Assembly (NCBI GenBank): GCA_030690165.1
Contig: JAUYHF010000007.1
Coordinates: forward strand, 131,420-195,419
DNA: 64,000 nt
Direction: 5' to 3'
DNA from: Deltaproteobacteria bacterium
GTDB lineage: Bacteria; Desulfobacterota; GWC2-55-46; UBA9637
Part shown: in pieces, positions 2,667-61,314 of the stretch
Numbering within the stretch: the stretch's first letter is position 1
Layout: every line of letters starts with the position of its first letter
Notes under the pieces: model-generated
Databases searched by the model: none
What the model saw: only the letters and a program-made list of their open reading frames with translations
What the model was told of the DNA's origin: nothing
Translations under genes and position numbers: made by a program

Positions 2667-2706
2667 AATACAGGCTAAAAGGTTGGAGGGGGAGGGGGAG
2701 GCATTT

Positions 2707-4758: not shown

Positions 4759-4895
4759 GAGATAAAAGTAACACAGCTGTTAGTAGTTGTCAATTTAACC
4801 CTAAATGCGCCTTTCCTTGACTTCTCCTCATAAGTTGTTTTAAACTTCATAACCGGCGCTTTGTTTTGTGACTAAATGGAGAGGAAGAATAGAAT

Positions 4896-44546: not shown

Positions 44547-45848
44547 ATGGCCGACAAATTTGACTGCATAATCATTGGCGCCGGTCCTTCCGGCATTGCC
44601 TGCGCATACACTCTGGCAAAGGCAGGGCTGAATGTTATGGTCTTTGAACGGGGAGAATATCCCGGCTCAAAAAATGTCTCAGGCGGGGTTTTGTATTCAA
44701 CCATCCTCAATAAACTCATCCCTGAATTTTGGAAAGATGCGCCTGTGGAAAGGCATGTGGCAAAGCGAAGATATTCCATACTCTCAAAGGATTCTGAGAT
44801 GGCTGTGGAATTAAGTTTTGACAGTTTCAATAACCCTCCCTACAACAACAGCTTCACAGTATTGCGCGCAAAATTTGACAGGTGGTTTGCAAAAAAAGCA
44901 GAGGATGCAGGGGCATTTATATTGACTGAAACAGTGGTCGATGATTTCATCTTTGAGAATGGAAAGATTATCGGGGTTAAGGCGAGGAGGGAGGGTGGCG
45001 ATGTTCTTGCAGATGTGGTTGTTTGCGCAGAAGGCGCAAATTCTCTCCTTGCAGAAAAGGCGGGCCTCAGGAAAAAACCTACAGACCATCAGATGATAAC
45101 CGCTGCCAAAGAGGTCATAAGCCTTCCACGTGAGGCTATAGAAGATAGATTCGGCTTGTCTGATGATGAAGGTGTGACCATAGAGTTTTTCGGCGACGCT
45201 GTTAAAGGGATGATAGGCTCAGGTTTTATCTATACCAATAAAGATTCACTATCCGTTGGTGTTGGCTGTCCCATAGCAGTTATGAAAGAAAATAATATGC
45301 GTCCCAATGATCTTCTTGATGCGTTCAAGTCACATCCGGTGGTAAGAAAGTTTTTAAGGGGAGGGAAGACCGAAGAATTGTCCGCAAAGATGATCCCTGA
45401 ATTGGGCTGCAAGAATCTCTCAAAATTTGCTGCCAATGGTTTACTCATTGTCGGAGATGCGGCAGGTTTGGTAAATCCGTCTCTTTATCGTGAAGGCTCC
45501 AATATGGCGATGGCGTCAGGTGTAATGGCAGCAGAGACGATTCTTGAGGCAAAGAAGAAAAGTAATTTTTCAGAATCGGCGCTGAGCGGGTTTACAAAGA
45601 GATTAAATGACAGCTTCGTTATGAAAGATTTAAAAAGATACGGCGATACGCCGAAGAAGTTATCTGCAATGCCTCAATTTTTCAAAGAATATCCTGATGC
45701 GATTCTAAAAATGGCAGAAGGATATTTCACAATATCAGACATGCCAAAAAAAGAAATGCAGAAACAGGCATGGTCTGCTTTTAAGGACAAGGTCTCTGTA
45801 TGGAGATTTCTGTGGGATATGTATAAGGCAAAGGGGTCGATTCTTTGA
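44547..45848 (+). CDS. fixC: FAD-dependent ETF-quinone oxidoreductase FixC-like
   Basis: FDCIIIGAGPSGIACA FAD fold and GSKNVSGGVLY motif; 433 aa. Confidence 0.75.
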   Translation: MADKFDCIIIGAGPSGIACAYTLAKAGLNVMVFERGEYPGSKNVSGGVLYSTILNKLIPEFWKDAPVERHVAKRRYSILSKDSEMAVELSFDSFNNPPYNNSFTVLRAKFDRWFAKKAEDAGAFILTETVVDDFIFENGKIIGVKARREGGDVLADVVVCAEGANSLLAEKAGLRKKPTDHQMITAAKEVISLPREAIEDRFGLSDDEGVTIEFFGDAVKGMIGSGFIYTNKDSLSVGVGCPIAVMKENNMRPNDLLDAFKSHPVVRKFLRGGKTEELSAKMIPELGCKNLSKFAANGLLIVGDAAGLVNPSLYREGSNMAMASGVMAAETILEAKKKSNFSESALSGFTKRLNDSFVMKDLKRYGDTPKKLSAMPQFFKEYPDAILKMAEGYFTISDMPKKEMQKQAWSAFKDKVSVWRFLWDMYKAKGSIL

Positions 45849-45902
45849 CAGGCCTCGGCAGATTCTGGGATTCGTGTAACAATAATGTATAAAACAAACA
45901 TC

Positions 45903-45930
45903 TTGTTTAAAACAGGTTGTTTGATATAAT
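45903..45930 (+). promoter_or_regulatory. sigma-70-like promoter with extended -10 for the antitoxin gene
   Basis: TTGTTT, 16-nt spacer, TGATATAAT; RBS AAAGGAGG 45937-45944 before ATG 45950. Confidence 0.4.
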
Positions 45931-45949
45931 CTCCCAAAAGGAGGCAACA

Positions 45950-46180
45950 ATGGTTAAGACATTGCATGCAGTCTATGAACATGGGATATTGAGGCCTTTG
46001 GAGCCGATAGACGATATTGAGGAGAACGCAGAAGTAGAATTGACTCTGAGCATAGAAAAGAAAGTCATTCATCCTATTTTAAGGTTTGCCGGCATATTGA
46101 AGGAAGAAGAGGCAAATCAGATGATGAAGACCGTAGACGATGAGTTTGAGAGGGTTAATCCTGATGAATGGAAAGATTAG
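45950..46180 (+). CDS. small antitoxin-like protein, probable VapB-type partner of the PIN toxin
   Basis: 76 aa; MVKTLHAVYEHGILRPLEP ... AEVELT pattern; overlaps the downstream PIN ORF. Confidence 0.5.
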   Translation: MVKTLHAVYEHGILRPLEPIDDIEENAEVELTLSIEKKVIHPILRFAGILKEEEANQMMKTVDDEFERVNPDEWKD

Positions 46181-46455
46181 CCTTGACACAAATATCGTAA
46201 TACGGCTGTTTAAAAATGATAAAGCTGTTACAAATCTCCTTTCGCGTAACTCAACGATATATCTGCATCCTGAATATTACAAGAAAGACAGCCGATCCAT
46301 ATTCTGCCATCAGATTACAGCTAAAACAAAAAGGGCGTCCAATCCCTGAAAATGACCTATGGATAGCGGCAGTCTGTATTGAAAACAGTCTTCCAATAAT
46401 CACGGCCGATGCGCATTTTGATGACGTTGATGGGTTGGAGGTTGTCAAAATATAA
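46164..46455 (+). pseudogene. PIN-domain (VapC-like) toxin, frameshifted and shortened
   Basis: N-terminal part (ISLDTNIVIRL) is in one frame to 46349; C-terminal part (ENDLWIAAVCIENSLPIITADAHFDDVDGLEV) is in the +1 frame to 46455; combined length about 97 aa is short for PIN. Confidence 0.5.
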
Positions 46456-46632
46456 ATGTTAGTAACGAAGGGCTGAGACTATGCCCGCCAAATGCGGAAA
46501 CGATGATGGAAGAGGGCAAAAGGAATATAGAAGGGCTGGTGGAGAGGTCCAATTTCTTTTTTAGCTATAGAATAAGCTGGTACTTTGATATAGAATGGAG
46601 AAAAATACTAATAATTTAGGGGGTGATTTATA

Positions 46633-46815
46633 ATGAGAGCCACTGCACAAAAAGTTAATCCAGAGGATTTTATCCTTTCGGCCCTTTCTCCAGAGGATCG
46701 GCTCGATGCGGCATTTGAGATTGCTCGCGAGGCGTTCAAAAAGACTCGTTTGACAATGAAAGATATTGATAATGCGGTTAAATCAGTAAGGAGCAAGGCT
46801 TACGAAAAGTTGTAG
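46633..46815 (+). CDS. small orphan addiction-module antitoxin-like protein
   Basis: 60 aa; LSALSPEDRLDAAFEIA resembles a putative addiction-module component family; RBS AGGGGGTG; no toxin follows. Confidence 0.3.
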   Translation: MRATAQKVNPEDFILSALSPEDRLDAAFEIAREAFKKTRLTMKDIDNAVKSVRSKAYEKL

Positions 46816-46856
46816 GGTGGTCACAGCCCACCGGATAAGGAATACAGCATGGATTA

Positions 46857-46941
46857 GGGAGAGGTTCCGCAGGGATGGTGAAGGATAAAGGGATTGGGGT
46901 TGCGATGGTGGAGGGGGATAAGATAGTCACCTGTTTTTATC
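46857..46941. repeat. 85-bp direct repeat, copy A
   Basis: GGGAGAGGTTCCGCAGGGATGGTGAAGGATAAAGGGATTGGGGTTGCGA ... TTTTTATC; about 50-nt core nearly identical to 47687-47768. Confidence 0.7.
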
Positions 46942-47001
46942 ATTTTTGAAACAATAATTTTTAGATATAGTGCTAACAAAGATATTATTAGGAGGTGTCC
47001 T

Positions 47002-47277
47002 ATGACGGTCATTGATTTGGTGGCAAAAGAATTTCATATGAACCCCAAAGAGGTTATAAAGGAAAGCATCGGCACGTATCTGCATCAGAAATTGTCGAAA
47101 GTTGAGGCAGACATCTTCACAATTGCTAAGAAACACGGCGTAAAAGATGTTTTTGAACTTGATGAAAAAATAAAAAAGGGGCTTATCAGCGAAAAGGATT
47201 CATATGATGACTATTTTGCCCTTGACAATCTTGAAGCGGAAAGGGAAAGGACCAAGAAGCTTCTGGAGAAAATTTGA
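47002..47277 (+). CDS. small acidic protein, first gene of a two-gene cassette
   Basis: 91 aa; strong RBS AGGAGG; stop overlaps next start (TGATG). Confidence 0.4.
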   Translation: MTVIDLVAKEFHMNPKEVIKESIGTYLHQKLSKVEADIFTIAKKHGVKDVFELDEKIKKGLISEKDSYDDYFALDNLEAERERTKKLLEKI

Positions 47278-47636
47278 TGCCTTCAATCCACGATCTGGAG
47301 AGGATTGCTGAGATAGAATTCGCTGACATTGTAGCCGGGACTATATTTATTAACCACAAGCTTAGAATATTTCTGACAGATAGCAGCTTTATAGATGTCA
47401 ACCTTTCGCAGAGGCTCCCAGATAAATTCGGTTTCCATTGGGAACGAATGAATAAGGCCGGCGAGGTATTCCGCTACGATAATTTCCCTGATCCAAGCTG
47501 GAAGAATGTCAGCACCTATCCATACCACTTTCATAACAGCGCACAAGAAGGAGTAGAGGCGGCACCTTTTCCGTTGGATGTCATAAAAGGTTTCAGGGCG
47601 TTCATGGAATTTGTTAGAAATAAAGTAAAGGAATGA
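47274..47636 (+). CDS. uncharacterized protein with FHWE ... RYDN ... HFH motifs, putative toxin-like partner
   Basis: 120 aa; translationally coupled to the upstream ORF; family assignment from memory only. Confidence 0.4.
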   Translation: MMPSIHDLERIAEIEFADIVAGTIFINHKLRIFLTDSSFIDVNLSQRLPDKFGFHWERMNKAGEVFRYDNFPDPSWKNVSTYPYHFHNSAQEGVEAAPFPLDVIKGFRAFMEFVRNKVKE

Positions 47637-47686
47637 AAGAGAGTTGGCTGGGATTGCCAGCAGGATGAGAGATATAGAAGGACAGA

Positions 47687-47768
47687 GGGAGAGGTTACGC
47701 AGGGATGGTGAAGGATAAAGGGTTGGGGTTGCGAGGGGTGAGAAGAGTAATCGGTTACGTTTTTTATC
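47687..47768. repeat. 85-bp direct repeat, copy B
   Basis: GGGAGAGGTTACGCAGGGATGGTGAAGGATAAAGGGTTGGGGTTGCGA ... TTTTTTATC. Confidence 0.7.
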
Positions 47769-47777
47769 TAAAAAATT

Positions 47778-48572
47778 ATGAAAACTGAAGAAGATAAATT
47801 TAAACACGAAATAGATATTTTCCGAACTGAAGTCGAATCTGGCATACAATTCTTCTATATGTATCTGGCATTTAATTCCGTCCTTAGTAAGAATAAACAA
47901 GCTCTAAAAATAGTAAATCGAACGCCTTTATTTTGGAACACGAATGTTGGTGCTCTACAGACCTCTTTTTTTATCGTATTGGGACGACTTTTTGACCAAA
48001 ACTCCAACCACAATGTTGATAGGTTGATAGGAGTTGCCCAAAAGCATTCTGATATTTTTTCTGCAGAGGCATTGGAAGTTCGTAAGCGAGCAGGGAGTGC
48101 AAATGCAGGTGAATGGATAAATGACTACATGAAAGACGTTTATGTCCCAACTAACGATGACTTCAGACGCCTGAGAAAATATGTTAGCAAGTATCGCAAA
48201 ATTTATGAGAACACATATCGGGATATAAGGCACAAGGTATATGCTCATAAAGTGCTATCAAATAAGGCTGATGTGCATAATTTATTTGCACGGACCAACA
48301 TTCGTGAAATACAAAAACTATTGATTTTTCTGAATCGAGTTCATGAAGCTCTTTGGCAACTTTTCCATAATGGTCGCAAACCTACATTGAGGGCAATGAA
48401 ATACTCAGTCAGTAGTATTATGAAAAATGTTCTGGCTCCAGAATGGCAAAGCCGACAGATTCAAGAACTGGTGGTGCATGAGACCCAAAAGTTTTTCGAC
48501 ATATTATTATCTATACCCAATAAGCGAGAACAGGAAAAGGACAGGACACTCTACAGGTTGAAGGAACAGTAA
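47778..48572 (+). CDS. uncharacterized protein, possible HEPN-like (Abi-type) defence protein
   Basis: 264 aa, mostly helical; R-x5-H motif RDIRHKVYAH; sits in an accessory islet; assignment tentative. Confidence 0.35.
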   Translation: MKTEEDKFKHEIDIFRTEVESGIQFFYMYLAFNSVLSKNKQALKIVNRTPLFWNTNVGALQTSFFIVLGRLFDQNSNHNVDRLIGVAQKHSDIFSAEALEVRKRAGSANAGEWINDYMKDVYVPTNDDFRRLRKYVSKYRKIYENTYRDIRHKVYAHKVLSNKADVHNLFARTNIREIQKLLIFLNRVHEALWQLFHNGRKPTLRAMKYSVSSIMKNVLAPEWQSRQIQELVVHETQKFFDILLSIPNKREQEKDRTLYRLKEQ

Positions 48573-48664
48573 TGGTGACTGACCTAATAGAAAAACAAAC
48601 AAGGAGTAATAAAAAATCTAAAACTTACTGGAAGAACTAATACAACCATGCTTACACTGATTCT

Positions 48665-48970
48665 ATGAGCCAATTTGAACAAATATTACAACCACTTGAA
48701 CCCAAAACCCTTGAGGAAAAGCTCTATCTTGTCAGGTTCAAAACTGATACAGAGAGCCATTTGAAGGTTGACTCTGAGAAATGCAGGGTTTGTAAAGATA
48801 AAGGTTGTATCTATATCTGTCCGGCAGATGTTTACAAAATGGATGAGAAGGAGAATATCGTAATCTCTTTTGAGGCGTGTCTTGAATGCGGCACTTGCAG
48901 GATTGCATGTGATTTTATAGAATGGAAAAATCCAAAGGGCGGGTATGGGGTGTGTTATAGATATGGATAA
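48665..48970 (+). CDS. fixX: ferredoxin-like protein FixX
   Basis: CRVCKDKGCIYICP and CLECGTCRIAC cysteine clusters; C-terminal YRYG; 101 aa. Confidence 0.75.
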   Translation: MSQFEQILQPLEPKTLEEKLYLVRFKTDTESHLKVDSEKCRVCKDKGCIYICPADVYKMDEKENIVISFEACLECGTCRIACDFIEWKNPKGGYGVCYRYG

Positions 48971-49009: not shown

Positions 49010-50188
49010 ATGAAAGACATCATTATAGCCGGCGCAGTCAGAACCCCTATTGGGTCTTTTAACGGGGCATTGAGTAATATCCCTGCTACAGGGCTTGGCA
49101 GTATTGCTATAAACGGGGCAATAAGCGGGGCAGGCATTAAACCAGCAGATGTTGGCGAGGTCATTATGGGAAATGTCCTCAGCGCTGGCATTGGTCAGGC
49201 GCCTGCAAGGCAGGCGGCTATTGGCGCGGGTCTGCCTTATGGGGTTAATTGTCTGGCAGTAAATAAGGTCTGCGGCTCAGGATTAAAGGCTGTGATGCTG
49301 GCGGCACAGGCAATTGCCCTTGGTGATGCAGATATAATCGTTGCCGGTGGCATGGAGAACATGAGCCGTGCTCCACACCTCCTTGAAAAGGCAAGGTTCG
49401 GTTACAGGATGGGGAATGGCGAGATTATTGATAGTATGATTAAAGACGGCCTGTGGGATGTTTATAATAACCTTCACATGGGTTCTTGCGCTGAGATTGT
49501 TGCTGAAAAATACAAAATCAGCAGGGAAGATCAGGATAGATACGGATTGCAGAGCTATAAGAGGGCAATAGATGCTCAGAAAAATGGTTGCTTCAATGAT
49601 GAGATTATTCCGATAACGCTCCCGGCTGGACGTGATAAATTTAAGAGTTTAACAATGGATGAAGAGCCCACAAGACACGACTTTGCGAGATTTGCAGAGC
49701 TTTCTCCTGTTTTTAAAGAGGGCGGCAGTATAACAGCAGGGAATTCTTCAAAGATAAGCGACAGCGCAGCAGCGGTTGTTGTGATGTCAGGGGATAAGGC
49801 AAAGGAGTTGGGCATACAACCGATAGCAAGGATTGTTGCATATTCTTCGCAGGGTGTTGAGCCGGAGATGTTCAGCATCGCACCTGTCGGCGCAATCAAA
49901 AAAGTTTTAGAAAAGACAGGACTGAGTTTGAAGGATATTGATCTGTTTGAGATAAATGAGGCATTTGCAGTATCCATGCTTGCAGTTATAAAAGAGCTTG
50001 ATTTAGATGAGACTAAGTTAAACATTCATGGAGGGGCCATTGCATTAGGACATCCGATTGGCGCAAGCGGCGCAAGGATTTTAACGACTCTGCTTTATGC
50101 TATGAAAAGGAAAAATGCAAAGAGAGGCATTGCGGCCATCTGCATTGGCGGCGGCGAGGCAGTGGCAATGCTGGTGGAGAGGATATAA
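49010..50188 (+). CDS. acetyl-CoA acetyltransferase (thiolase II)
   Basis: Thiolase motifs VNKVCGSGLKAV, NIHGGAIALGHPIGASGARIL, GIAAICIGGGE; 392 aa. Confidence 0.95.
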   Translation: MKDIIIAGAVRTPIGSFNGALSNIPATGLGSIAINGAISGAGIKPADVGEVIMGNVLSAGIGQAPARQAAIGAGLPYGVNCLAVNKVCGSGLKAVMLAAQAIALGDADIIVAGGMENMSRAPHLLEKARFGYRMGNGEIIDSMIKDGLWDVYNNLHMGSCAEIVAEKYKISREDQDRYGLQSYKRAIDAQKNGCFNDEIIPITLPAGRDKFKSLTMDEEPTRHDFARFAELSPVFKEGGSITAGNSSKISDSAAAVVVMSGDKAKELGIQPIARIVAYSSQGVEPEMFSIAPVGAIKKVLEKTGLSLKDIDLFEINEAFAVSMLAVIKELDLDETKLNIHGGAIALGHPIGASGARILTTLLYAMKRKNAKRGIAAICIGGGEAVAMLVERI

Positions 50189-50190
50189 AC

Positions 50191-50256
50191 ATGGATATCA
50201 AAACCATCGGTATAATCGGCGCAGGCATAATGGGTTCCGGCATAGACAGGGTATAG
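50191..50256 (+). pseudogene. duplicated 5' fragment of the 3-hydroxybutyryl-CoA dehydrogenase gene (21-codon remnant)
   Basis: ATGGATATCAAAACCATCGGTATAATCGGCGCAGGCATAATGGGTTCCGGCATAG matches the first 57 nt of hbd at 50903 with about 5 mismatches, then hits a stop; abuts the thiolase stop. Confidence 0.6.
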
Positions 50257-50350
50257 CACTACACTCTGTGTTGTGGTGTTTAAATAGTTTATTGAAAAGG
50301 TTTGAATATAAAGCCCTTATAATGTAAAATTGCAAGAAAAGGAGACGTTC

Positions 50351-50575
50351 ATGCCAACAACACAGAAACAAAAAGATATAGTGTATGTCAAACAGTATGT
50401 AACCGATGCAAAAGGGCATAAGATGGCTGCTATTCTTGATATAAAAGAATTGGCAAGAGTCCAAGAGCTGCTGGAAGACCTTGCAGATCTGAAGGCAATT
50501 GAAGAAAGGGTGTGCGAAAAGGAAGAAAGTTACGAGGCATACAGCCGAAAGAGAAAGTCTTCCCTCCATGTATAA
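50351..50575 (+). CDS. antitoxin of a RelE/ParE-type toxin-antitoxin module
   Basis: 74 aa from ATG 50351 (RBS AAAAGGAG); stop overlaps the toxin start by 8 nt (ATGTATAA). Confidence 0.5.
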   Translation: MPTTQKQKDIVYVKQYVTDAKGHKMAAILDIKELARVQELLEDLADLKAIEERVCEKEESYEAYSRKRKSSLHV

Positions 50576-50822
50576 ACTCGTCATCAAAAACTCTGCAAAG
50601 AAAGAGCTCGACGATATTCCTGCTGCTCAATTCTTAAAGATTGATGCCGCAATTCTGTTATTAAAGACAAATCCGCATCCATTTCCACAGTCAAAAAAAC
50701 TAAAAGGTTAAGACAAGTGCCGGCTTCGTGTGGGTGACTACAGGGTTGTTTACGCTGTTGATGAAAAAGAGAAGAACATAACAATCTATCGGATACGTCA
50801 TAGAAAAGAGGTTTACCGCTAA
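50568..50822 (+). pseudogene. RelE/ParE-family toxin interrupted by an in-frame TAA (50709-50711)
   Basis: MYKLVIKNSAKKELDDIP ... SKKLKG-stop-DKCRLRVGDYRVVYAVDEKEKNITIYRIRHRKEVYR; both halves in the same frame and together match RelE/ParE. Confidence 0.6.
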
Positions 50823-50902
50823 ATGTACGCCATGCACAAGGATTCTTATGAAAGGCTGTAATATGAGAGAAAGAGGGGCATTCCCAGCATTTTTATAGAA
50901 TT

Positions 50903-51751
50903 ATGGACATCAAAACCATCGGTATAATCGGCGCAGGCACAATGGGCTCCGGCATAAGCCAGGTTATGGCATTATCAGGCTTTGAAGTCATAATGATGGA
51001 TATGAAGGATGAGTTTGTTCGGAGGGGGCTGGAGAATATAAAAAATGGCCTTGGTAAGATGCTTGAAAAGGCAAAAATAACCGCTGAAGAAAAAGAAAAA
51101 ACTATTGCAAGGATTCGCACTACCATCAGACTTGAAGACATGGCAAAGGTAGATTTTGTAATAGAGGCAGCATCCGAGATGGCGGAATTGAAATTAGATA
51201 TATTCAGAAGGCTTGATATAATCTGCCGCAAGGATACTATCCTTGCAACAAACACATCCTCCATACCAATTACACGTATAGCCTCTGCGACGAAAAGGGA
51301 AGACAAGGTTATCGGAATGCATTTCATGAACCCTGCGCCTGTAATGAAGCTCGTGGAGATAATCAGGGGAACGAACACATCTGGCGAGACATTTGCCGCA
51401 GTCAAAGGTCTTACTGAAAAGATTGGCAAGATTCCCGTAGAATCCAAAGACCGCCCTGGTTTTATAATGAATAGAATCCTTATGCCTATGATAAACGAGG
51501 CTGTCTTTGCATTTATGGATGGGGCTGCGTCTGCCGAAGATATTGATAAGGCAATGACACTCGGCGCAAATCAGCCAATAGGGCCTCTGGCGCTGGCTGA
51601 TCTAATCGGCCTCGATACAGTGTTTTCAATTATGGAAAGCATATACAGTGAGACCAAAGACCCAAAACACCGGCCATGCCAGCTGCTTAAAAGATATGTG
51701 GATGCAGGGGAGCTGGGCCGGAAAACAGGGAAAGGGTTTTATAAATATTGA
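50903..51751 (+). CDS. hbd: 3-hydroxybutyryl-CoA dehydrogenase
   Basis: NAD-binding GIIGAGTMGSGI, C-terminal dimerisation domain; 282 aa. Confidence 0.9.
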   Translation: MDIKTIGIIGAGTMGSGISQVMALSGFEVIMMDMKDEFVRRGLENIKNGLGKMLEKAKITAEEKEKTIARIRTTIRLEDMAKVDFVIEAASEMAELKLDIFRRLDIICRKDTILATNTSSIPITRIASATKREDKVIGMHFMNPAPVMKLVEIIRGTNTSGETFAAVKGLTEKIGKIPVESKDRPGFIMNRILMPMINEAVFAFMDGAASAEDIDKAMTLGANQPIGPLALADLIGLDTVFSIMESIYSETKDPKHRPCQLLKRYVDAGELGRKTGKGFYKY

Positions 51752-51763
51752 GCAGGAGATTTT

Positions 51764-54700
51764 ATGAAGCTAAAATATCTTGTTTTATCTTTTTTATTGG
51801 CAGCGCTGCCGTATTCCACGGTATTCAGCGCTTCGCCTGAGCTTCAGATTACCCATTACAGTCCGCAGGGTGAAAATACAGGCCAGGCGCAGATACAGGT
51901 GGTATTCAATAAACCTTTGACGGCTTTATCAACTCTGGATGACCCAATAAGAAAAGAAGTCATATCGCATTTTCATTTAGAGCCTTCGGTTGAGGGTAAT
52001 TTCAGGCTCATTGGCACATCTGCTGTTGTGTTTGAACCAAGACACCACCTCCCCATGGCGACAAATTTTATTGTCAAGATAGATACGGGGATTAAGGCAA
52101 TAGACGGCAGTATTCTTGCAAAAGGCATTGAATGGTCATTCAATACACCGGGGCCGGCTATCAACCGGATAGACCCAAATAATGCAGATCATGCCCTGCC
52201 GTCTCAAGTTGTTACTGTTACATCCAATCAGCCGCTTAAATTGGAGTTGCTTAAAAAGGCGATAACCTTTATTAGAATGGATACAAATGCGCCTGTTCCG
52301 TTTATTCTTGAGCCTGCAAAGGAAAATCCAAAACCAGAGGAAACTATCGGCATGGACAGGCAGTATTACCGCTATATATTAAAACCTGCCAACGTTTTGC
52401 CGCTGAACACGCGTTTTCAGGCGACTGTGAGCGTCGGCATTCTCCCTGAAGAAGGGAATATGCCGACAAAAGAGGCTAGAGCCGCATCTTTTAAAACATA
52501 CGGCCCGTTGCGGTTTGAAAGGGTCGGGGCGCCTCCATATGAAGACTTTGAAGGAAGGCTTGAGCCGAGCTTTGTAATTTATTTTACCAATAGGGTTCTT
52601 CTGGAAGAGATTAACAAACATATATCCATCAAGCCGGCAATAAAAGGCCGCATCTTTGAAACAGATTGGTATCAGGGTAACATGATAACAGGCGGCCTTG
52701 AGCCGGATACAGATTATGAGATAACCCTGTTGCCTGAATTAACAGATGTCTATGGCCAGAAGATTGAATATCCGCAGGTTGTAAAATTTCATTCCGGAAA
52801 TATGAGGCCAAGTATTACAGTCCGGCAGGGATTTTATCTCATTTCATCCATGACAGACCCTGTGCTGCCCCTTGGGGCTCAGGCCATAACCAATCTTAAC
52901 TACAAGATAGTCGGCCTAAAACCGGAAGATCTTTTAATGGACGTCGATTTCAGGGATAACTATAAAAGAGAAGGGCTTATGAGTAAACTGGCAGGGGACT
53001 ACAGCTCAAAGCAGGGTGTGGAGCATAGAAATAAGCCGATGCGTCACGATTTTGATTTAAAGCCGTTTTTTAACGCAAAGGGCTTTGGCGCAGTGGTCTA
53101 TGATTTTTATTCGCCAGAAGAGATAAGGCGATATTCCAGCGATAAAATCATCCACCACACCGGTTTCATCCTGAGAACTGACCTTGCAGCGCACCTCAAG
53201 ATTTCTCCGACAGAAGGTATTGTCCTTGTCAACAGTCTCTCCGGCGGCGGAGCAGTCAGGGATGCAAATATTGGTATTTATAGAATAGAGGATGCTGTTT
53301 CTAAAAAATCGTGCGCTGGCGGCGTTACCGATAAAGACGGTATGCTGATTTTGTCCAAAGAGAATCTCCTTTCATGCACAAAGCGGCATATTTCCAACAA
53401 GGTCTTAAACGAGAATATGCCTGCCGGAGGAGATCCTGATGATGAGGCATATGGCCAGGAATACTACGGCTTTGCCCAGCCGCCAACACTTATCCTGATT
53501 GTGTCAAAGGGAGACGACTGGACATATCTCAGGGCTCAGGGCGAAGGCAATCCGTCTATCTGGAATTTTGGGGTGTCATCCGCATGGGAGGCTGAAAGGC
53601 CCATCCCTGCCGGAACAATATTTTCAGACAGGGATATTTATAGGCTTGGCGAAACTGTGGAACTGAAAGCCGTGTTCAGGTATCTCCTTTACGGCGAACT
53701 TAAAAAAGATGTTGGAGGCAAATATAATATAACGCTTACAGACCCGAATGGCGGGATTAAGGGGCTTCAGGATATTACCTTGAGCGAGTTCGGCACATTT
53801 CATTTCAGCCTTCCCATCCAGAAAAACTGGCCGCTGGGTCATTACCGCATTATTGCAACAAATAAAGATAAAGGGCTTTCATACTCAGGCACATTCAGGG
53901 TTGAGCAATTCAGGGCGCCTGATTTCAAGGCCGAGGTCAAGCCTGAAAAAGATATTGTATTTGCAGGCAGCGAGATAAAGGCCGGCATTCAGGCCGAATA
54001 TTATTTTGGAGCGCCGATGTCAGGCGCGCTTGCGTCATGGCGTATTACGCGATACAGGGCATATTTTACGCCTAAGGGCCTAGAGGAGTTTCACTTTGGC
54101 ACACCAGAATGGATAGAGAGGGAAAACGCGGCTGCGGAACCGACTGTGAATGTGGCGGCAGATAAAATAGAGCTTGATAAGAATGGCAGGGGCGTAATCT
54201 CTTTGTCTGTTGCAAAAGGGACAATACAGAGACCCATGCGTTATAACATTGATGCAGAGGTCAAAGATCCATCTGAGCAGACGGTCGGCGCATCCGGTTA
54301 TATCACAGCCCTGCCTTACGAAATCCTTATTGGAATGGAGACAAAAGACTGGTTTGGAGCGGCAAACAAGCCCATGACAGTAACAATGATAGCGGCAGAC
54401 AGCAAGGGGAATATAAAATCAGGTATAAAATTGAAGGCAAGGCTCTTTAAGCGGGACTGGCATGCGATTGAAAGGGCTGTGCGCACAGGTGAGATGGAAA
54501 CAGAGTCAAGGGTGGTTGATAAAGAGGTTGGAAGGTGCGAGGCGGATAGCTCTGATAAACCTGTTTCATGCGACCTCATACCGCAAGAGGCCGGTTATTA
54601 TATTATTGAGGCAGGGATTAAAGATAAACAAAACACTGGAACAGAGGCCAGGCTTTCATTTTATGCCACAGGTAAAGAAATGGTCGGATGGCAGGGGACA

Positions 54701-57547
54701 GAGTATGACAGGATAGAGATACTCCTTGATAAAGGAGATTATAAGCCGGGAGATACTGCTAGGGCATTTGTAAAATCTCCGTATCCCGAAGCAGAGATGT
54801 TGTTTACTGTGGAGAGGGAGAAATTTTTATTTAATAAAAGACAAAAGGTCTCAGGCGGCGCATTTATAGTTGAGTTTACTGTCACAAAAGAGATGATACC
54901 GAATGCATATGCAGCCGTTGTGCTCATAAGAAAAGGCAAGCCCGCATCAGGCATTGAAGCCCCAGGTGAAGCTAATAGCGACAAGCAATTTAAGGTTGGT
55001 TATGCGCCGTTTAAGGTGAAAAGCGATGAAAAAAGGCTGGCGGTTACTGTTGTCCCTGACAGAGAAAAATTGAGGCCTTCTGAAGAGGTTAAGGTGGATA
55101 TAAATCTCAAGGACTTTTTTGGCAAGCCGGTTGTGGGAGAGGTTACAGTCCTTGCTGTTGATGAGGCCATATTGGCCCTAACCGGCTATTCCACGCCTGA
55201 TATTGTTTCTGTAATATATCCCCATAGGGGCCTTTCCGTAAGAATAAACGACAACCGCAGATTTCTGCTCCACCAGCAGAAGTTTCTTGAAAAAGGCAAT
55301 GATGGCGGCGGAGGCGGCTTCCTGACAAATGTAAGGGGTATTTTCAAGAGCCTTGCCTATTTTAATCCGTCGCTGGTGACTGATGCGGCCGGCCGCGCAA
55401 GCGTAAGTTTTAAGCTGCCTGATAATCTGACAAAATGGCGTATTATGGCAGTGGCTGTGACAAAGGAAGATATGTTTGGAAACGGCCAGGCCAATGTTAC
55501 AACAAGCCTGCCTCTGGTTTTAAGGCCTGTTTCCCCGCGGTTTGCAAGGCTTGGAGACAGATTTAAGGCAGGCGTAACTGTGCAAGCAACAGGCGATGCA
55601 GAGGGTGATGTAAAAATAAAGATGGCGCAGCTGCAAAGAGATTCAAGCCTTGTTTTTGACGGCATTACAAAAGATGAGATTTCCATTCATCTTAAACCTG
55701 GTGAGACAAAGAAAGTCCTCTTTCCATTTAAGGCAAGATTCACAGGCGAAGGCAGTCTCCAGTTCTCCGCCTATTTTAAAGGGAAGCCTGACGATAAAGG
55801 CCGGACTATTGCCTATGATGATGCGCTGTCGGTAAAACTCAATGTTCAGGATATCCCTCCGACAGAAACTGTTGTGGCGGTCGGCGAGACAGATAAGGAA
55901 ACTATTGAGAAGATAAATATTGCAGGCAACGTAAGGCCTGACACAGGCGGCTTGCAGATAAGGATAAGCTCTACAGCCCTGTCGCAGATAAACGAAGGGG
56001 TAAGGTATCTTGTAGAGTATCCATACGGCTGTATTGAACAGACTATAAGCAGCTTATTGCCGCTTATCCAGATACAGGAGCTTTCGAAGATATTTAAGTT
56101 TGACCTCAAAACAGCAAAGCCCATTTCAGAGGTCATTGACTCAAATATGCAGAAGGTCCTTGCGCTGCAGAATACTGACGGCGGATTTAAGTACTGGCCA
56201 TCGGATATGAGGTCAGAGCCGTATGCGTCAACATATGCGGCAAAGCTGTTTAACAGGGCTGCTGCTCTTAATTACAAGATACCACAGGATGCAAAAAACA
56301 GATTGGTGGATTATCTCCAAAAAATTCTTCATAATCCCCAGTATCAATTCTGGTCATGGCAGTCTCTGGCAGAATACAGGCTTACCATGCTCTTTGCCAT
56401 AAAGGACCTCGGAAGATGGGACGAGTCATATTATCAGGAATTATTTAACAGGAGAAAAGAACTGAGCTTCGGCGGCCAGATGGCATTGGATTATCTTCTT
56501 ACAGAACTTGACAGAAATAATGCAATGCTGCGTATGCTTAAGGGCAAGGGCGCTCTGCAGCAGGATAACAGGGCGGCTGTATTATTTGAGGAGATAAAAA
56601 ACGGCATGTTTATCACTGCCCAGACAGCGCATTTTGAAGACCGTTCAGAACTGCCTCCGTCATGGGGCTTTATGCATTCGCCTGTTATCACAACAGCAAG
56701 GGGGCTTGAGCTGTTTTTAAAGAGAGAGACTGAAAGCCAGTTCATATCAAAGATGGCTATGTATATCCTGAATGCCAGAAAGAATGGGAGATGGAGCAAC
56801 ACCTATGAAAACGCCCAGGCCATAGACAGCCTCATTATGGTATTAAAGACAAAGGAGGCAGTTCCGCCTGATTATACAGCCCAGGTTATATTGGCAGGGA
56901 AGAAGATTGCGGAGGCTGTTCAGAAAGGGTATGACGCAAACCCTTTCGAGGCTGCTGTAAAGGCAGGAGAATTGCCGCAGGGTGTTTCAGACATCAGGAT
57001 ACAGAAAAACGGCAGCGGTGCGCTTTATTATACCATGTCCTATTCATACAAAAAGGCAGGGTCGGAGCCGCCCATACAGGAAGGTTTTTACATTGAAAGA
57101 AAGATTACAAGATTCGGTAAAGGAGATGAGGATGGAATATTAAAGGCAAGGCTCGGCGATGTGGTGCAGGTGGATATAACTATTATTGTGCCGCAGGCAG
57201 CGCATCGTTTTGTGGTGGATTCCCCCATACCGGCAGGCCTTGAGCCTATTGACACAAGCCTTAAGACCACATCAAGGCAGTATGAAACAGACAACAGCAG
57301 ACAGGGGCGGAAGTCGCAAAGATGGGGATGGGAATACAGCTACAATCCATTTAACCATGTTGAACGGCATGATGACAGCGTAAAACTTTTTGCCGATGAG
57401 ATTACAGCCGGGGTATATCACTATAAATATCTTGCCAGGGTTACAACCCCCGGCACATTTGAATATCCCGGCTCTGTTGCAGCCCTCATGTACGAGCCGG
57501 AACAGTTTGGCAGGAGCAGGGAAGGGGTGTTTGAGGTAGTGGAGTAA
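51764..57547 (+). CDS. bacterial alpha-2-macroglobulin family protein with intact thioester motif
   Basis: 1927 aa; signal peptide; thioester CxEQ site YPYGCIEQT; followed directly by pbpC. Confidence 0.85.
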   Translation: MKLKYLVLSFLLAALPYSTVFSASPELQITHYSPQGENTGQAQIQVVFNKPLTALSTLDDPIRKEVISHFHLEPSVEGNFRLIGTSAVVFEPRHHLPMATNFIVKIDTGIKAIDGSILAKGIEWSFNTPGPAINRIDPNNADHALPSQVVTVTSNQPLKLELLKKAITFIRMDTNAPVPFILEPAKENPKPEETIGMDRQYYRYILKPANVLPLNTRFQATVSVGILPEEGNMPTKEARAASFKTYGPLRFERVGAPPYEDFEGRLEPSFVIYFTNRVLLEEINKHISIKPAIKGRIFETDWYQGNMITGGLEPDTDYEITLLPELTDVYGQKIEYPQVVKFHSGNMRPSITVRQGFYLISSMTDPVLPLGAQAITNLNYKIVGLKPEDLLMDVDFRDNYKREGLMSKLAGDYSSKQGVEHRNKPMRHDFDLKPFFNAKGFGAVVYDFYSPEEIRRYSSDKIIHHTGFILRTDLAAHLKISPTEGIVLVNSLSGGGAVRDANIGIYRIEDAVSKKSCAGGVTDKDGMLILSKENLLSCTKRHISNKVLNENMPAGGDPDDEAYGQEYYGFAQPPTLILIVSKGDDWTYLRAQGEGNPSIWNFGVSSAWEAERPIPAGTIFSDRDIYRLGETVELKAVFRYLLYGELKKDVGGKYNITLTDPNGGIKGLQDITLSEFGTFHFSLPIQKNWPLGHYRIIATNKDKGLSYSGTFRVEQFRAPDFKAEVKPEKDIVFAGSEIKAGIQAEYYFGAPMSGALASWRITRYRAYFTPKGLEEFHFGTPEWIERENAAAEPTVNVAADKIELDKNGRGVISLSVAKGTIQRPMRYNIDAEVKDPSEQTVGASGYITALPYEILIGMETKDWFGAANKPMTVTMIAADSKGNIKSGIKLKARLFKRDWHAIERAVRTGEMETESRVVDKEVGRCEADSSDKPVSCDLIPQEAGYYIIEAGIKDKQNTGTEARLSFYATGKEMVGWQGTEYDRIEILLDKGDYKPGDTARAFVKSPYPEAEMLFTVEREKFLFNKRQKVSGGAFIVEFTVTKEMIPNAYAAVVLIRKGKPASGIEAPGEANSDKQFKVGYAPFKVKSDEKRLAVTVVPDREKLRPSEEVKVDINLKDFFGKPVVGEVTVLAVDEAILALTGYSTPDIVSVIYPHRGLSVRINDNRRFLLHQQKFLEKGNDGGGGGFLTNVRGIFKSLAYFNPSLVTDAAGRASVSFKLPDNLTKWRIMAVAVTKEDMFGNGQANVTTSLPLVLRPVSPRFARLGDRFKAGVTVQATGDAEGDVKIKMAQLQRDSSLVFDGITKDEISIHLKPGETKKVLFPFKARFTGEGSLQFSAYFKGKPDDKGRTIAYDDALSVKLNVQDIPPTETVVAVGETDKETIEKINIAGNVRPDTGGLQIRISSTALSQINEGVRYLVEYPYGCIEQTISSLLPLIQIQELSKIFKFDLKTAKPISEVIDSNMQKVLALQNTDGGFKYWPSDMRSEPYASTYAAKLFNRAAALNYKIPQDAKNRLVDYLQKILHNPQYQFWSWQSLAEYRLTMLFAIKDLGRWDESYYQELFNRRKELSFGGQMALDYLLTELDRNNAMLRMLKGKGALQQDNRAAVLFEEIKNGMFITAQTAHFEDRSELPPSWGFMHSPVITTARGLELFLKRETESQFISKMAMYILNARKNGRWSNTYENAQAIDSLIMVLKTKEAVPPDYTAQVILAGKKIAEAVQKGYDANPFEAAVKAGELPQGVSDIRIQKNGSGALYYTMSYSYKKAGSEPPIQEGFYIERKITRFGKGDEDGILKARLGDVVQVDITIIVPQAAHRFVVDSPIPAGLEPIDTSLKTTSRQYETDNSRQGRKSQRWGWEYSYNPFNHVERHDDSVKLFADEITAGVYHYKYLARVTTPGTFEYPGSVAALMYEPEQFGRSREGVFEVVE

Positions 57548-57550
57548 AGT

Positions 57551-59926
57551 ATGAAAAGAAAATTTATCATAGCAGTATTGCTGGCAGTCGCCCCGTTTTT
57601 TGCTGGCATCGGATTTATAGAACTGTTTAGATATACAGCCCGCGTCAATCCTATAAAATCCGGCGACATCGGACGCGCGCAGTATCTGAGCGTATATGAC
57701 AGGAACGGCATTCTCTTGCAGGAGGTAAGGACCAGAGACGGCAAATTTGTGCCTGTAGATGTAAAAGAGGTCTCACGGCATTTTATAAATGCCGTGATTG
57801 CAGCAGAGGATAAAAGATTTTTTAAACACAGCGGCATTGACTGGTTTGCAGTAGGCAGGGCCGCATATCAAAACATACTCTCCGGCAAAACCCGATCAGG
57901 GGCATCAACAATTACCTTGCAATTTGCCAAGATGCAAAATCCCGGTCAGAGAACCTTTGCCAGAAAAATAGGGGAGATGAAGACCGCATACAGGCTTGAA
58001 GCAGGGATGACAAAAGAGGAGATACTTTCCGGTTACATAAGCAGGCTTCCTTTTGGCAATCAACTGTTTGGCGTTGAGGCTGCGTCTTTAAATTATTTCG
58101 GGAAAAGGGCTAATGCCCTAAGCCTTGCCCAGTCTGCATTTCTGGCAGCCATACCCAATGCCCCTTCAGAATTTAATCCCTATAAAAATTACGAGGGTAT
58201 AAAAAAGCGGCAGAGGCTCATCCTTTTCCGTATGAAAGAAGAAGGCTATATCAGCGCAGAGGATGCAAAAATAGCGCAAAGGGAAAGGATATCAGTAAAT
58301 GACATAAGGCCGTTAAACCATGCCCCTCATTTTGTGCAGGCGCTGCTCCCCCGCATAGCTGATGAGAGAAATAAGGTTGTAACGACTCTGGATCTGAATA
58401 TCCAGAATATGGCTGTTCAGCAGGTAAGGGATATTGTCAATGAATTAAAGGACAGACAGGTTACCAATGCCGCTGCAATTGTAATTGATAACAGGAGTGG
58501 AGATATTCTGGCTTATGTGGGTTCAGCAGATTTCTGGGACGAGGCCGGTCTTGGCCAGAATGACGGCGTTACTGCCCTTCGTCAGCCTGGTTCTGCTTTG
58601 AAGCCTTTTATTTACAGCCTTGCCATTGAGCGCGGCATGACCACCGCAACCCTTTTGGAAGACATAGAGGCGCATTATTCAACCCCTATAGGCGACTTTT
58701 CTCCGAAAAATTACAGTCGCCGGTTTCACGGCCCTGTAAGATTAAGAGAGGCCCTTGCCAATTCCCTTAATATCCCGGCAGTAAAGGTGGTTGAAAATAT
58801 TGGCGTGGATAATGTGCTCGCAGGGTTAAAGGAGTTTGGATTTTTATCTTTAAAAAAGGATGCGGGGTATTATGGGGCTGGTATCGTGCTCGGAAACGGC
58901 GATGTGAGCCTATATGAATTAGCAAGGGCGTATACTGCTCTATCCAGAGGCGGCGCAGCAATACCTTTGAAAGAGATTTTAGAGCCGGAAGGCGCGCTGG
59001 GATATGATAATTTTAAGTCCAGGCATGTTTCTCTTCCGCGATATATTTATCTTATTACTGACATTTTAAAAGATCCTTATGCCAGGGCAATGGAATTCGG
59101 TCTGGATTCTGTTATAAAGATGCCGTTTCCTTGCGCTGTCAAGACAGGCACATCCAGAAATTATCGCGATAATTGGAGCATCGGTTATACGACAGACTAT
59201 ACCGTAGGTGTGTGGGTCGGCAATTTTGACGGCGCGGCCATGCAGCAGATTTCAGGCGTTGAAGGCGCAGGCCCGCTTTTCAGAAGAATAATGATGAAGC
59301 TTTACGAAAATAAATGGCCGGAGGAGTTTCTAAAGCCTGATGACCTTGTTGAAGTTGAGATATGCCCTTTGTCAGGAAAGGCAAAAGGCTATGCCTGTCC
59401 TTCCGGCGTAAAGGAGATATTTCTGAAACAGGAAATGGCAATGATTGACCAGACTCCTTGTAATATGCACAGGATTCTTATGGCAGATGCCGGCACAGGC
59501 GAACCTGTTATAGAAGACGGCTTATATCAGAGTAATAATCAGGGGGTTAATAATCTGGAAGAGCGGGTGTTTGAGGATATGCCTCCGGTTTATGAGCCGT
59601 GGCAGAGAGAGGGAAAGAGGCAGTCGGCGCCTCATGAATTGTCTTTATTCAGGAAGGGTGATGAATTTTCCATAATAAGCCCGGCACACGATGCAGCCTA
59701 CAAGCGGCTTACTGATCTTTCGCCGGAATACCAGACAATCCGTTTTGAGGCAGTCGGCGCGCCGCCCAATGTCCCTGTCCGCTGGATTGTCAACGGCAAA
59801 ACCGCAGGCATAACTACCTTGCAGCATGTAATGGACTGGCCGGCAAATAGCGGAGAGTTTAGCCTTTTGGCCGTGCCTGAGGCGAGGAAAGAACTTTCGC
59901 GGGAAGTTAGATTTATGGTGAGATAA
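57551..59926 (+). CDS. pbpC: penicillin-binding protein 1C (transglycosylase/transpeptidase)
   Basis: Glycosyltransferase-51 region (EDKRFFKHSGIDWFAVGRAAYQN), transpeptidase region, C-terminal PBP1C-type domain; start 4 nt after A2M stop. Confidence 0.85.
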   Translation: MKRKFIIAVLLAVAPFFAGIGFIELFRYTARVNPIKSGDIGRAQYLSVYDRNGILLQEVRTRDGKFVPVDVKEVSRHFINAVIAAEDKRFFKHSGIDWFAVGRAAYQNILSGKTRSGASTITLQFAKMQNPGQRTFARKIGEMKTAYRLEAGMTKEEILSGYISRLPFGNQLFGVEAASLNYFGKRANALSLAQSAFLAAIPNAPSEFNPYKNYEGIKKRQRLILFRMKEEGYISAEDAKIAQRERISVNDIRPLNHAPHFVQALLPRIADERNKVVTTLDLNIQNMAVQQVRDIVNELKDRQVTNAAAIVIDNRSGDILAYVGSADFWDEAGLGQNDGVTALRQPGSALKPFIYSLAIERGMTTATLLEDIEAHYSTPIGDFSPKNYSRRFHGPVRLREALANSLNIPAVKVVENIGVDNVLAGLKEFGFLSLKKDAGYYGAGIVLGNGDVSLYELARAYTALSRGGAAIPLKEILEPEGALGYDNFKSRHVSLPRYIYLITDILKDPYARAMEFGLDSVIKMPFPCAVKTGTSRNYRDNWSIGYTTDYTVGVWVGNFDGAAMQQISGVEGAGPLFRRIMMKLYENKWPEEFLKPDDLVEVEICPLSGKAKGYACPSGVKEIFLKQEMAMIDQTPCNMHRILMADAGTGEPVIEDGLYQSNNQGVNNLEERVFEDMPPVYEPWQREGKRQSAPHELSLFRKGDEFSIISPAHDAAYKRLTDLSPEYQTIRFEAVGAPPNVPVRWIVNGKTAGITTLQHVMDWPANSGEFSLLAVPEARKELSREVRFMVR

Positions 59927-59928
59927 TT

Positions 59929-61314
59929 ATGGCTGAAAAAACCATCGCCAGAAGACTGGCAGAATATGCCCACAGTTTACAATTTACTGACCTCCCCGAT
60001 GAAGTTGTCCATGAAGTGAAAAGGAGACTGATAGATTCCATCGGCTGCATCCTCGGCGCATTTAACAGCGAGCCTGCTAAAATTGCAAGGAAGATTGCCG
60101 GGACAGTAAAAGGGGACGCTGCTATTTTTGGCGCAAATATCAAAACAACCCCCGACCTTGCAGCGTTTGCAAATGGCGTTGCTGTCCGCTATCTGGATTA
60201 TAACGATACATATCTTTCAAAAGAGCCTGCTCATCCAAGCGATAATATATCTGCCTGCCTCGCTGTTGCAGAGGCTGAAAATAAAACAGGGAAGGATTTG
60301 ATTACAGCTATTGTCCTTGCCTATGAAGTTCAGTGCAGGCTGTGCGATGCGGCATCTTTAAGGCAAAGAGGATGGGATCATGTTACATACGGAGCGTTTT
60401 CTTCTACCCTTGCAGCAGCCAAACTTATGGGTTTAAGTATTGAGAAAACCGTGCATGCGTTGGGTCTCGCAGGTGTTGCAAATATTGCGCTCAGGCAGAC
60501 AAGGGTAGGTGAGCTTTCCATGTGGAAGGGGTGCGCTTTTGCCAATACAGCGAGAAATGCGGTATTTGCGGCCAATTTAGCAAGGCATGGCATGACAGGG
60601 CCTGCGCCAATATTTGAAGGTGAAAAGGGGTTTACGAAACAGGTTTCAGGGCCTTTTGAACTTAAAGAGCTTGGCAACGGGAAAAGGAGGCCGTTCAAGA
60701 TTCTGGACGCATATATAAAATTCTATCCTGCTGAGTATCACAGCCAGAGCGCCATAGAGGCAGCTATTGAATTACGGAAAGAAATTGCAGGGCAGGGCTT
60801 TAGCCCTGCGGATGACATACAATCTATTGAGATAAGAACCTTTGATGCTGCTTATGAAATCATAGGCTCTGGCCCGGAAAAATGGAATCCAAAAACACGG
60901 GAGACCGCAGACCACAGTCTTCCATATTGTGCGGCTGTTGCCTTGATTGATGGAGGTGTGGGTTTGAATCAGTTTTCGGAAAATCGCATAAAAGACTCAA
61001 AACTGCACAAACTGATTCAGAAGGTGAAGGTAATAAAAGACAAGGGACTGACCAATCAGTATCCTGAAGCAATGCCGAATCTTATCAAAATTACTATGAG
61101 AGACGGCAGACAATTTTCCAATAAAGTTAAATATCCCAAAGGTCATCCAAAAAAACCTATGACAGATGATGAGGTGGAAGAAAAGTTCAGGACATTGGCA
61201 AAAGGCAATATTTCAGGACAAAATATTGATCATTTGCTTGATGTTTTATGGAGAATAGAGGAAATAAAGAATATAAATAAACTCTTTTCAAAGAGGCTAT
61301 GTTTGAGAAGCTAA
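59929..61314 (+). CDS. MmgE/PrpD family protein (2-methylcitrate dehydratase-like)
   Basis: 461 aa; general colinearity with PrpD/MmgE proteins (HPSDNISACLAVAEAE, LAYEVQCRL). Confidence 0.75.
   Translation: MAEKTIARRLAEYAHSLQFTDLPDEVVHEVKRRLIDSIGCILGAFNSEPAKIARKIAGTVKGDAAIFGANIKTTPDLAAFANGVAVRYLDYNDTYLSKEPAHPSDNISACLAVAEAENKTGKDLITAIVLAYEVQCRLCDAASLRQRGWDHVTYGAFSSTLAAAKLMGLSIEKTVHALGLAGVANIALRQTRVGELSMWKGCAFANTARNAVFAANLARHGMTGPAPIFEGEKGFTKQVSGPFELKELGNGKRRPFKILDAYIKFYPAEYHSQSAIEAAIELRKEIAGQGFSPADDIQSIEIRTFDAAYEIIGSGPEKWNPKTRETADHSLPYCAAVALIDGGVGLNQFSENRIKDSKLHKLIQKVKVIKDKGLTNQYPEAMPNLIKITMRDGRQFSNKVKYPKGHPKKPMTDDEVEEKFRTLAKGNISGQNIDHLLDVLWRIEEIKNINKLFSKRLCLRS

Follow-up and report, generated by a model that had tools for sequence, protein, structure and literature searches.

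In a 64,000-nucleotide stretch of a Deltaproteobacteria bacterium genome (contig JAUYHF010000007.1, positions 131,420 to 195,419 of the forward strand; the whole stretch is called the window below, and coordinates follow its own numbering), a toxin-antitoxin cassette with an intact antitoxin gene and a toxin frame broken by a stop codon lies between the genes for thiolase and 3-hydroxybutyryl-CoA dehydrogenase (hbd), with the start of hbd repeated on its far side. We regard it as very probably an ordinary mobile type II cassette of the RelBE type that carries its own promoter, sits inside an operon, has flanks built by recombination and has a freshly inactivated toxin. Its position in the operon is unusual but tolerated, and it is an ordinary selfish cassette in mid-decay. 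The evidence comes largely from comparison of the window with contigs of other genomes, cited here by L numbers.

The cassette and the operon it occupies

The cassette lies inside a fix/etf-thiolase-hbd operon. On the plus strand the thiolase stop is followed by 2 nt, a relic open reading frame (ORF), a 94-nt AT-rich stretch, the antitoxin, the toxin frame, an 80-nt spacer and hbd:

49010-50188, plus strand: thiolase (acetyl-CoA acetyltransferase), the upstream operon gene; Pfam Thiolase_N 2e-92, Thiolase_C 3e-50
50191-50256, plus strand: relic of the resident hbd start, a 21-codon ORF with stop TAG at 50254-50256; repeat of the hbd 5' end
50257-50350, plus strand: cassette 5' flank with a promoter-like element and a GGAG ribosome-binding site; 100% identity in L088-L092
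50351-50575, plus strand: RelB-like antitoxin gene, intact, 74 aa; Pfam PF18506
50568-50822, plus strand: RelE/ParE-superfamily toxin pseudogene, 84 codons; Pfam PF05016
50709-50711, plus strand: in-frame TAA at toxin codon 48; GAA (Glu) in every close intact homologue
50823-50902, plus strand: cassette 3' flank, abutting the hbd ATG; its last 42 nt (50861-50902) form a junction motif also present at other cassette borders in close relatives
50903-51751, plus strand: hbd, 282 aa, full length and functional-looking, of the 'beta' class defined below; Pfam 3HCDH_N 2e-63, 3HCDH 8e-35

The relic opens with an ATG at 50191, 2 nt past the thiolase stop, and positions 50191-50244 are identical to 50903-50956 at 51 of 54 sites (three mismatches), with only patchy similarity further on. 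Allowing up to 3 mismatches, this 54-mer occurs at these two sites only across the 64-kb window, and in none of 100 shuffles. The initial annotation had described a 57-nt repeat of hbd after the thiolase stop, running into a stop codon; the repeat and the stop are there, and the near-identical part is 54 nt. Each of the elements that it named (repeat, antitoxin, broken toxin frame and hbd) was located to within a few bases, with the toxin start corrected here to 50568. The antitoxin and toxin genes overlap by 8 nt, ATGTATAA, from the toxin ATG at 50568 to the antitoxin stop at 50573-50575.

With its stop codon masked, the toxin matches the Pfam family ParE_toxin (PF05016) at 50.6 bits (cutoff 23; E 2.9e-13) and covers profile positions 2-89 of 89, and the antitoxin matches the RelB-like family PF18506 at 31.1 bits (cutoff 27; E 2.1e-7); these matches and the 8-nt overlap bear out the earlier description of an antitoxin at 50351-50575 overlapping a RelE/ParE-like toxin. 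An 84-codon toxin directly 3' of, and overlapping, a small antitoxin gene is the layout of the RelE/ParE superfamily. The uninterrupted frame of a PF05016 member is lost in the window through the TAA at codon 48, and the window toxin is a member of the superfamily by descent and a pseudogene in this genome. Among NCBIfam models the sole match to the toxin was RelE_StbE (TIGR02385), at 24.5 bits under the cutoff of 27.9, and the antitoxin matched none. The closest solved structure to the toxin is aRelE PHS013 of Pyrococcus horikoshii (PDB 1WMI), aligned from end to end with E 1.2e-5, followed by RelE (9G12), a Thermus toxin-like protein, YoeB and Rv2866, so that the best matches are aRelE, RelE and YoeB and not ParE; a PDB search with the antitoxin returned coiled-coil noise only and no informative antitoxin match. 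We file the pair in the RelE/ParE superfamily, and these sequence matches would place it on the RelE (mRNA interferase) side. The window pair shares with aRelE-aRelB (1WMI) and the RelE/StbE branch the same two-gene layout, antitoxin first and overlapping the toxin, but its toxin has low sequence identity to aRelE and is a pseudogene, and its antitoxin is unmatched to any solved antitoxin. Over ten loci, the divergent pairs give a dN/dS (the ratio of non-synonymous to synonymous substitution rates) of about 0.1 in the toxin and 0.10-0.27 in the antitoxin, and such low values across the family, indicative of purifying selection on both genes, imply that the toxin-antitoxin family is functional in general. 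The antitoxin would be expected to neutralise its cognate toxin, judging from gene order and co-conservation across more than 10 loci.

Comparison with other genomes identifies the cassette as an insertion. Thiolase stands directly upstream of hbd in more than 40 distant genomes, with a gap of less than about 150 nt, and an empty site is preserved in two contigs of a close relative, L177 and L178 (hbd 87% identical in amino acid sequence), where the original junction of thiolase TAA, 2 nt and hbd ATG reads ...GGAGAGGATATAA-AG-ATGGATATC... and equals the thiolase-relic junction of the window save for one spacer base. The proposal in the initial annotation that the cassette had inserted between thiolase and hbd is thus upheld. 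The same cassette occurs in five separate assemblies (L088-L092), with an intact toxin reading GAA at codon 48 in all five. In L088-L091 the hbd relic and cassette adjoin thiolase and/or hbd, and identity to the window is 100% in the promoter region, 98-99% in the antitoxin, 98% in the toxin and 97.5% in the 3' flank; in L092 the 3' flank is only 87% identical to the window and the right flank is not hbd. Across L081-L092 the window antitoxin has 97-99% nucleotide identity, and the window thiolase has 96-98% to L081, L088 and L177. The L088-L091 contigs thus indicate that the duplication is no assembly artefact, that the cassette is an insertion and that the toxin was inactivated after insertion.

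Some differences among these junctions may be recorded here. The thiolase-relic gap is only 2 nt in the window and the empty-site genomes, as against a 41-nt spacer in the relatives with intact toxins (L088 1568-1608, L090 392-432, L091 28-66), which lies between thiolase and relic and contains both a ribosome-binding site, GAGGGTGA, and a hairpin of the form CCCTCT...AGAGGG. L091 in addition has GAA in place of the thiolase stop, by mutation. Scans with hbd returned nothing closer than 77% and no extra junctions from JGI metagenomes, and only L001, at 77%, plus distant genomes from GTDB; the antitoxin and hbd proteins of the window had no exact match in the collections searched.

The operon would continue to be expressed through the cassette. 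A GGAGAGG Shine-Dalgarno sequence at the 3' end of thiolase, which natively serves hbd, now stands before the relic; having kept both this sequence and the start codon, the relic is probably translated into a 21-aa peptide. A promoter scan placed a promoter-like TTGAAT-17-TAAAAT at 50302-50330, a match to consensus only. No terminator was found between thiolase and hbd, and read-through into hbd is presumed for that reason; hbd would then be expressed from the operon promoter together with the cassette promoter.

Two hbd allele classes and the origin of the flanking repeat

The hbd genes fall into two allele classes that are about 88% identical over the whole gene:

beta hbd class: window, L081, L179 and L180; within-class identity 94-97%
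alpha hbd class: L177 and L089-L091; within-class identity 94-99.7%

The window hbd has 94-96% nucleotide identity to L081, L180 and L179 versus 88% to L177 and L089; thiolase is 95-98% identical in all close relatives. Within the repeat, the left copy of the window matches the hbd start of the empty site (alpha, L177) at 54 of 54 positions, and the right copy matches the beta sequence (L081, L179, L180), again at 54 of 54, so that all three mismatches between the copies are allele differences and not mutations that followed a duplication. The earlier suggestion that the insertion had duplicated its target is thereby contradicted: the two copies belong to different allele classes and do not descend from one target. 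In L088-L091 the arrangement is reversed, with a left copy that is beta at 53 of 54 positions, behind the 41-nt spacer, and a functional hbd body of alpha type. Both novel joints are common to the window and L088-L091, save for one base at the relic-to-cassette joint.

Downstream, the PrpD-YceG block of the window is 95.5% identical to L177 versus 90-93% to the beta genomes, and from these values and those for hbd we conclude that the background of the window is alpha-like and that a patch of beta hbd is set into it, beginning exactly where the cassette ends. This points to replacement of the hbd allele and of nothing beside it, with the left border of the window's tract at the cassette. The two hbd classes (window 50903-51751, L177 7001-7852, L081 4729-5580) stand about 12% apart; the thiolase and PrpD-YceG flanks differ by only 3-8%.

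Target-site duplications made by transposases are typically 2-14 bp long. As in a transposon or insertion sequence, a direct repeat of target sequence surrounds the inserted DNA here, but the repeat is 54 nt long with copies drawn from different alleles, the same cassette occurs elsewhere without flanking repeats, and neither terminal inverted repeats nor a transposase accompany it. We infer that recombination, not transposition, built or reshuffled the two copies. The left repeat would be what remains of the start of the resident hbd, unmoved from its native place after the thiolase Shine-Dalgarno sequence, and the hbd that follows the cassette is complete and of the other class. The founding event may have been homology-facilitated illegitimate recombination (HFIR), as defined in PMC3240628, or else a circle or tandem unit with a fragment of hbd on it may have integrated; each flank would later have been replaced by homologous recombination up to the non-homologous border of the cassette. 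The window looks like an expected HFIR product in that one side is joined inside hbd without homology, and the other runs on into an hbd allele of foreign type and from there back into resident background; the difference is that the same joints with swapped alleles in L088-L091 require extra steps. Both of two histories fit the data: (a) HFIR import of the cassette plus a beta hbd into an alpha genome, which explains the window on its own, or (b) one founding event followed by flank replacement, with tracts halting at the heterologous cassette. History (b) accounts more simply for shared joints with swapped alleles. The relic-to-cassette joint falls between hbd nt 54 and 64, and a candidate microhomology near it consists of CAGG in hbd and CAAGG in the cassette 5' flank of L081 and L175.

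The direct repeat exactly flanks the insert and is common to L088-L091, as would be expected had the cassette entered, on the model of the initial annotation, in one step with a true target duplication of about 57 nt; the three mismatches would then be later point mutations. We consider this unlikely, given that all three mismatches coincide with alpha/beta differences, that L090 carries the reverse allele combination, that the hbd body is 12% off the allele matched by the relic in a setting where the thiolase and PrpD flanks are 95-97% identical, and that inverted repeats, a transposase and duplications at other copies of the cassette are all lacking. Copies of different allele classes are also what an inter-strain chimera might give, and the order of segments in L092 is reminiscent of a circular permutation, so that the duplication might be thought an assembly artefact in which a collapsed or chimeric repeat joins strains. 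This is highly improbable: L089, L090 and L091, from different samples, each run as one contig through both copies and the cassette, L088 spans thiolase, relic, cassette and the first bases of hbd, the joints are identical across these contigs, and a 54-nt repeat is shorter than typical reads.

The stop codon and the decay of the pair

A protein search with the toxin gave 113 relatives, the closest of which (P0001-P0006, 92-99% identical) are all 84 aa long and read ...KLKGEDKCRLRVGDYRVVY... across the site; the window toxin is 99% identical to the intact P0001/P0002. All close intact homologues have GAA (Glu48) where the window has TAA, a single G-to-T difference, and this TAA is the sole defect in the frame, as the initial annotation had it. 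Because the toxin is intact, at 84 aa, in L088-L091, which share cassette and relic with the window, the inactivation is placed after the insertion; with GAA at this codon in L088-L092 and the antitoxin ORF of the window intact, the earlier view that the toxin was inactivated later and that the antitoxin persists is supported. A G-to-T change would have turned Glu48 into a stop and removed the C-terminal beta-sheet half of the toxin, leaving the antitoxin untouched. Elsewhere in the frame, only three synonymous changes and a single non-synonymous one separate the toxin of the window from that of L088, which suggests that the lesion is very recent, or else a base-call error. An alternative genetic code was considered and rejected: TAA ends both the thiolase and antitoxin genes.

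Among close relatives whose hbd is about 94-96% identical to that of the window in nucleotides (L081-L087, L179 and L180), toxin lesions of other kinds are found at this locus. In L179, a CCGC...CCGC deletion has removed toxin codons 38-84. L180 has a deletion from codon 49 to the hbd start together with a frameshifted antitoxin. In L081-L087 codon 37 is the last that remains of the toxin, the upstream neighbour is a nucleotidyltransferase/HEPN pair, and the right-hand joint is that of L180 with an additional 31-nt loss. The 16 nt before hbd in L081 were considered as a remnant of the native spacer or of the 3' flank and rejected as such, the first 5 nt being toxin codons 47-49 and the rest common to L180. 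The lesions in these relatives are taken to be independent events. The locus thus presents a decay series: an intact pair, a nonsense allele, toxin deletions beside an intact antitoxin, and both genes broken. In L081 the orphan antitoxin departs from otherwise conserved positions by three replacements specific to that lineage, a hint of relaxed constraint. That the toxin goes first would follow from the costs, loss of the toxin presumably costing the cell nothing and loss of the antitoxin beside an active toxin being lethal. In L179 the region has undergone additional rearrangement. A gene for a 792-aa ClpB-like double-AAA ATPase lies between its truncated RelBE cassette and hbd (2680-5058), HicAB and small ORFs lie upstream of the cassette, and thiolase and fixX are absent from the 8.7-kb contig.

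Degraded chromosomal type II toxin-antitoxin loci and orphan antitoxins have been catalogued in the Klebsiella pneumoniae population and their abundance is already established, degrading pairs being named as one possible source of orphans (PMC7192599). The window resembles those cases in that an antitoxin stands beside a disrupted toxin in the same context as the intact pairs of other strains. What differs from that catalogue is that here the full series is visible at one locus of an uncultured lineage, from the empty site to both genes broken.

The stop codon might also be a sequencing or consensus error, the toxin being intact in the real organism. Only one base differs, no degenerative change is seen elsewhere in the gene, and TAA stands at this codon in no other contig; even so, the toxin has been lost independently at least three times at this locus in relatives, so that a real nonsense allele is unsurprising, and there is no homopolymer run or other local feature that would predispose to a G-to-T error, which leaves an error improbable. 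Nor do we think it likely that the module is still active, whether through low read-through of the TAA into toxin or through an antitoxin kept to neutralise a related toxin. The window cassette has kept the antitoxin ORF, promoter and ribosome-binding site of the intact cassettes without change, and orphan antitoxins are common, with anti-addiction proposed as one role (PMC7192599). On the other side, no second toxin or antitoxin copy was found within the 64-kb window, and the antitoxins of earlier toxin-losers are changing, by three replacements in L081 and a frameshift in L180, which looks like decay and not retention. A freshly inactivated toxin in a mobile cassette with recombination-built flanks is therefore retained as the preferred account, against which some observations have to be set. 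The hbd leader of the window is AU-rich without a visible Shine-Dalgarno sequence, as it is in L088-L091; with the TAA confined to the window, reads are needed to tell it from a base-call error; the shared joints with opposite allele classes in the window and L088-L091 fit other histories than one origin too; and hbd nt 55-75 and the cassette 5' flank are patchily similar, which blurs the position of the relic-to-cassette joint.

Cassette mobility and other modules at operon junctions

Cassettes with toxin genes 80-94% identical in nucleotides (85-95% in protein) occur in unrelated contexts: in L093 between acetyl-CoA synthetase and ATP-grasp genes, in L094 between DUF7380 and AMMECR1 genes, in L175 after a restriction-modification pair and in L176 before tolB. 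The presence of related cassettes in such unrelated contexts implies that the cassette is mobile. Homology to the cassettes elsewhere extends from about 50255-50275 of the window to about 28 nt beyond the toxin stop. No flanking duplications were found at the L093 and L094 cassettes, and no terminal inverted repeats or transposase ORF at cassette ends. An integron gene cassette would end in an attC-like imperfect palindrome and have an integrase/attI close by. In the 3' flank of the window cassette there is no inverted repeat, and the fold of 50815-50925 is no better than that of shuffled sequences (z-score 0.11). No integrase-like ORF was recognised among those examined at 41.6-52.5 kb, the rest of the window not having been scanned for IntI, and a search of 45.8-51.1 kb against Rfam gave no credible match, only a spurious eukaryotic long non-coding RNA model far under threshold.

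At 50861-50902 of the window lies a junction motif, 42-55 nt long in its various copies, GAGMAAGAGGGRCATTCCC...TATTTTTATWGA, which nhmmer finds in close relatives at the borders of cassettes and nowhere else; it lacks a significant fold and belongs to no Rfam family. Further copies are at L179 1590-1641 and 2613-2663, L180 1075-1127, and L092 3-44 and 715-764. In L179, L180 and L092 the motif is followed by a stretch resembling the 5' end of fixX, the full 12-nt AGCCAATTTGAA being exact in L180 only. The short scaffold L092 (1-854) reads, in order, 3' flank, hbd relic, antitoxin, intact toxin, a variant of the 3' flank and non-hbd sequence, with one copy of the motif on either side of relic and cassette. 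Either the relic moves together with the cassette here, in a circular or tandem form, or the scaffold is a chimeric metagenome contig that joins different strains.

The operon holds further selfish modules, which differ from strain to strain. In the window, the gap between fixC (44547-45848) and fixX (48665-48970), 45849-48664, is a second islet of addiction and defence genes:

45917-46180: AF2212-like antitoxin
46140-46349 and 46216-46455: PIN toxin split by a frameshift, of which only the C-terminal half matches Pfam PIN
46633-46815: 60-aa ORF
47002-47277 and 47274-47636: 91-aa ORF and TumE toxin
47778-48572: AbiU2 HEPN protein

With this frameshifted PIN gene, the operon has a further decayed toxin. 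L177 has RHH/PIN genes after fixC and MNT plus HepT between fixX and thiolase (5153-5780). At the thiolase-hbd junction, L001 (4406-6000; hbd 77%) has two minus-strand genes, MqsA-like and DUF4258, the distant genome L006 (4648-6000) a GNAT acetyltransferase and a UPF0175 protein, and L015 (4118-6000) an N4/N6 methyltransferase and an MvaI/BcnI endonuclease. Between hbd and PrpD (59929-61314) the window carries, at 51764-59926, genes for an alpha-2-macroglobulin (1927 aa) and a PBP1C-type penicillin-binding protein (791 aa). No such block stands in L081, L177, L179 and L180, where PrpD adjoins hbd directly or overlaps with it, from which it follows that this 8.2-kb block is a strain-specific insertion, starting exactly at the end of the beta hbd patch. 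It is conceivable, though we would give the idea little weight, that the operon junctions act as an integrase-less cassette array, in which addiction and defence modules (RelBE, MNT/HEPN, HicAB, PIN, TumE, AbiU2 and MqsA-like) are captured, swapped and deleted by recombination via gene-start relics (hbd' and possibly fixX') and the 42-55-nt motif; the hbd relic might even move along with its cassette, as the order of segments in L092 would suggest.

Current understanding of such modules is unchanged by these results, and their immediate value lies in annotation, where the toxin becomes a pseudogene and the 21-codon ORF a relic of hbd. What makes the locus of interest is how complete its natural decay series is, together with the signature of recombination about the insert and the role of the junction as a recurrent landing site for addiction modules. 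Every life stage of a chromosomal toxin-antitoxin cassette can be seen here in natural populations, and the expected order of decay, toxin first, is supported by real alleles and not by theory alone. As the locus shows, selfish modules can invade a tight operon junction repeatedly and be tolerated there, and allelic recombination in the genes on either side is sharply bounded by an insert to which it has no homology. For homology-facilitated illegitimate recombination among uncultured bacteria, the locus is a clean test case.

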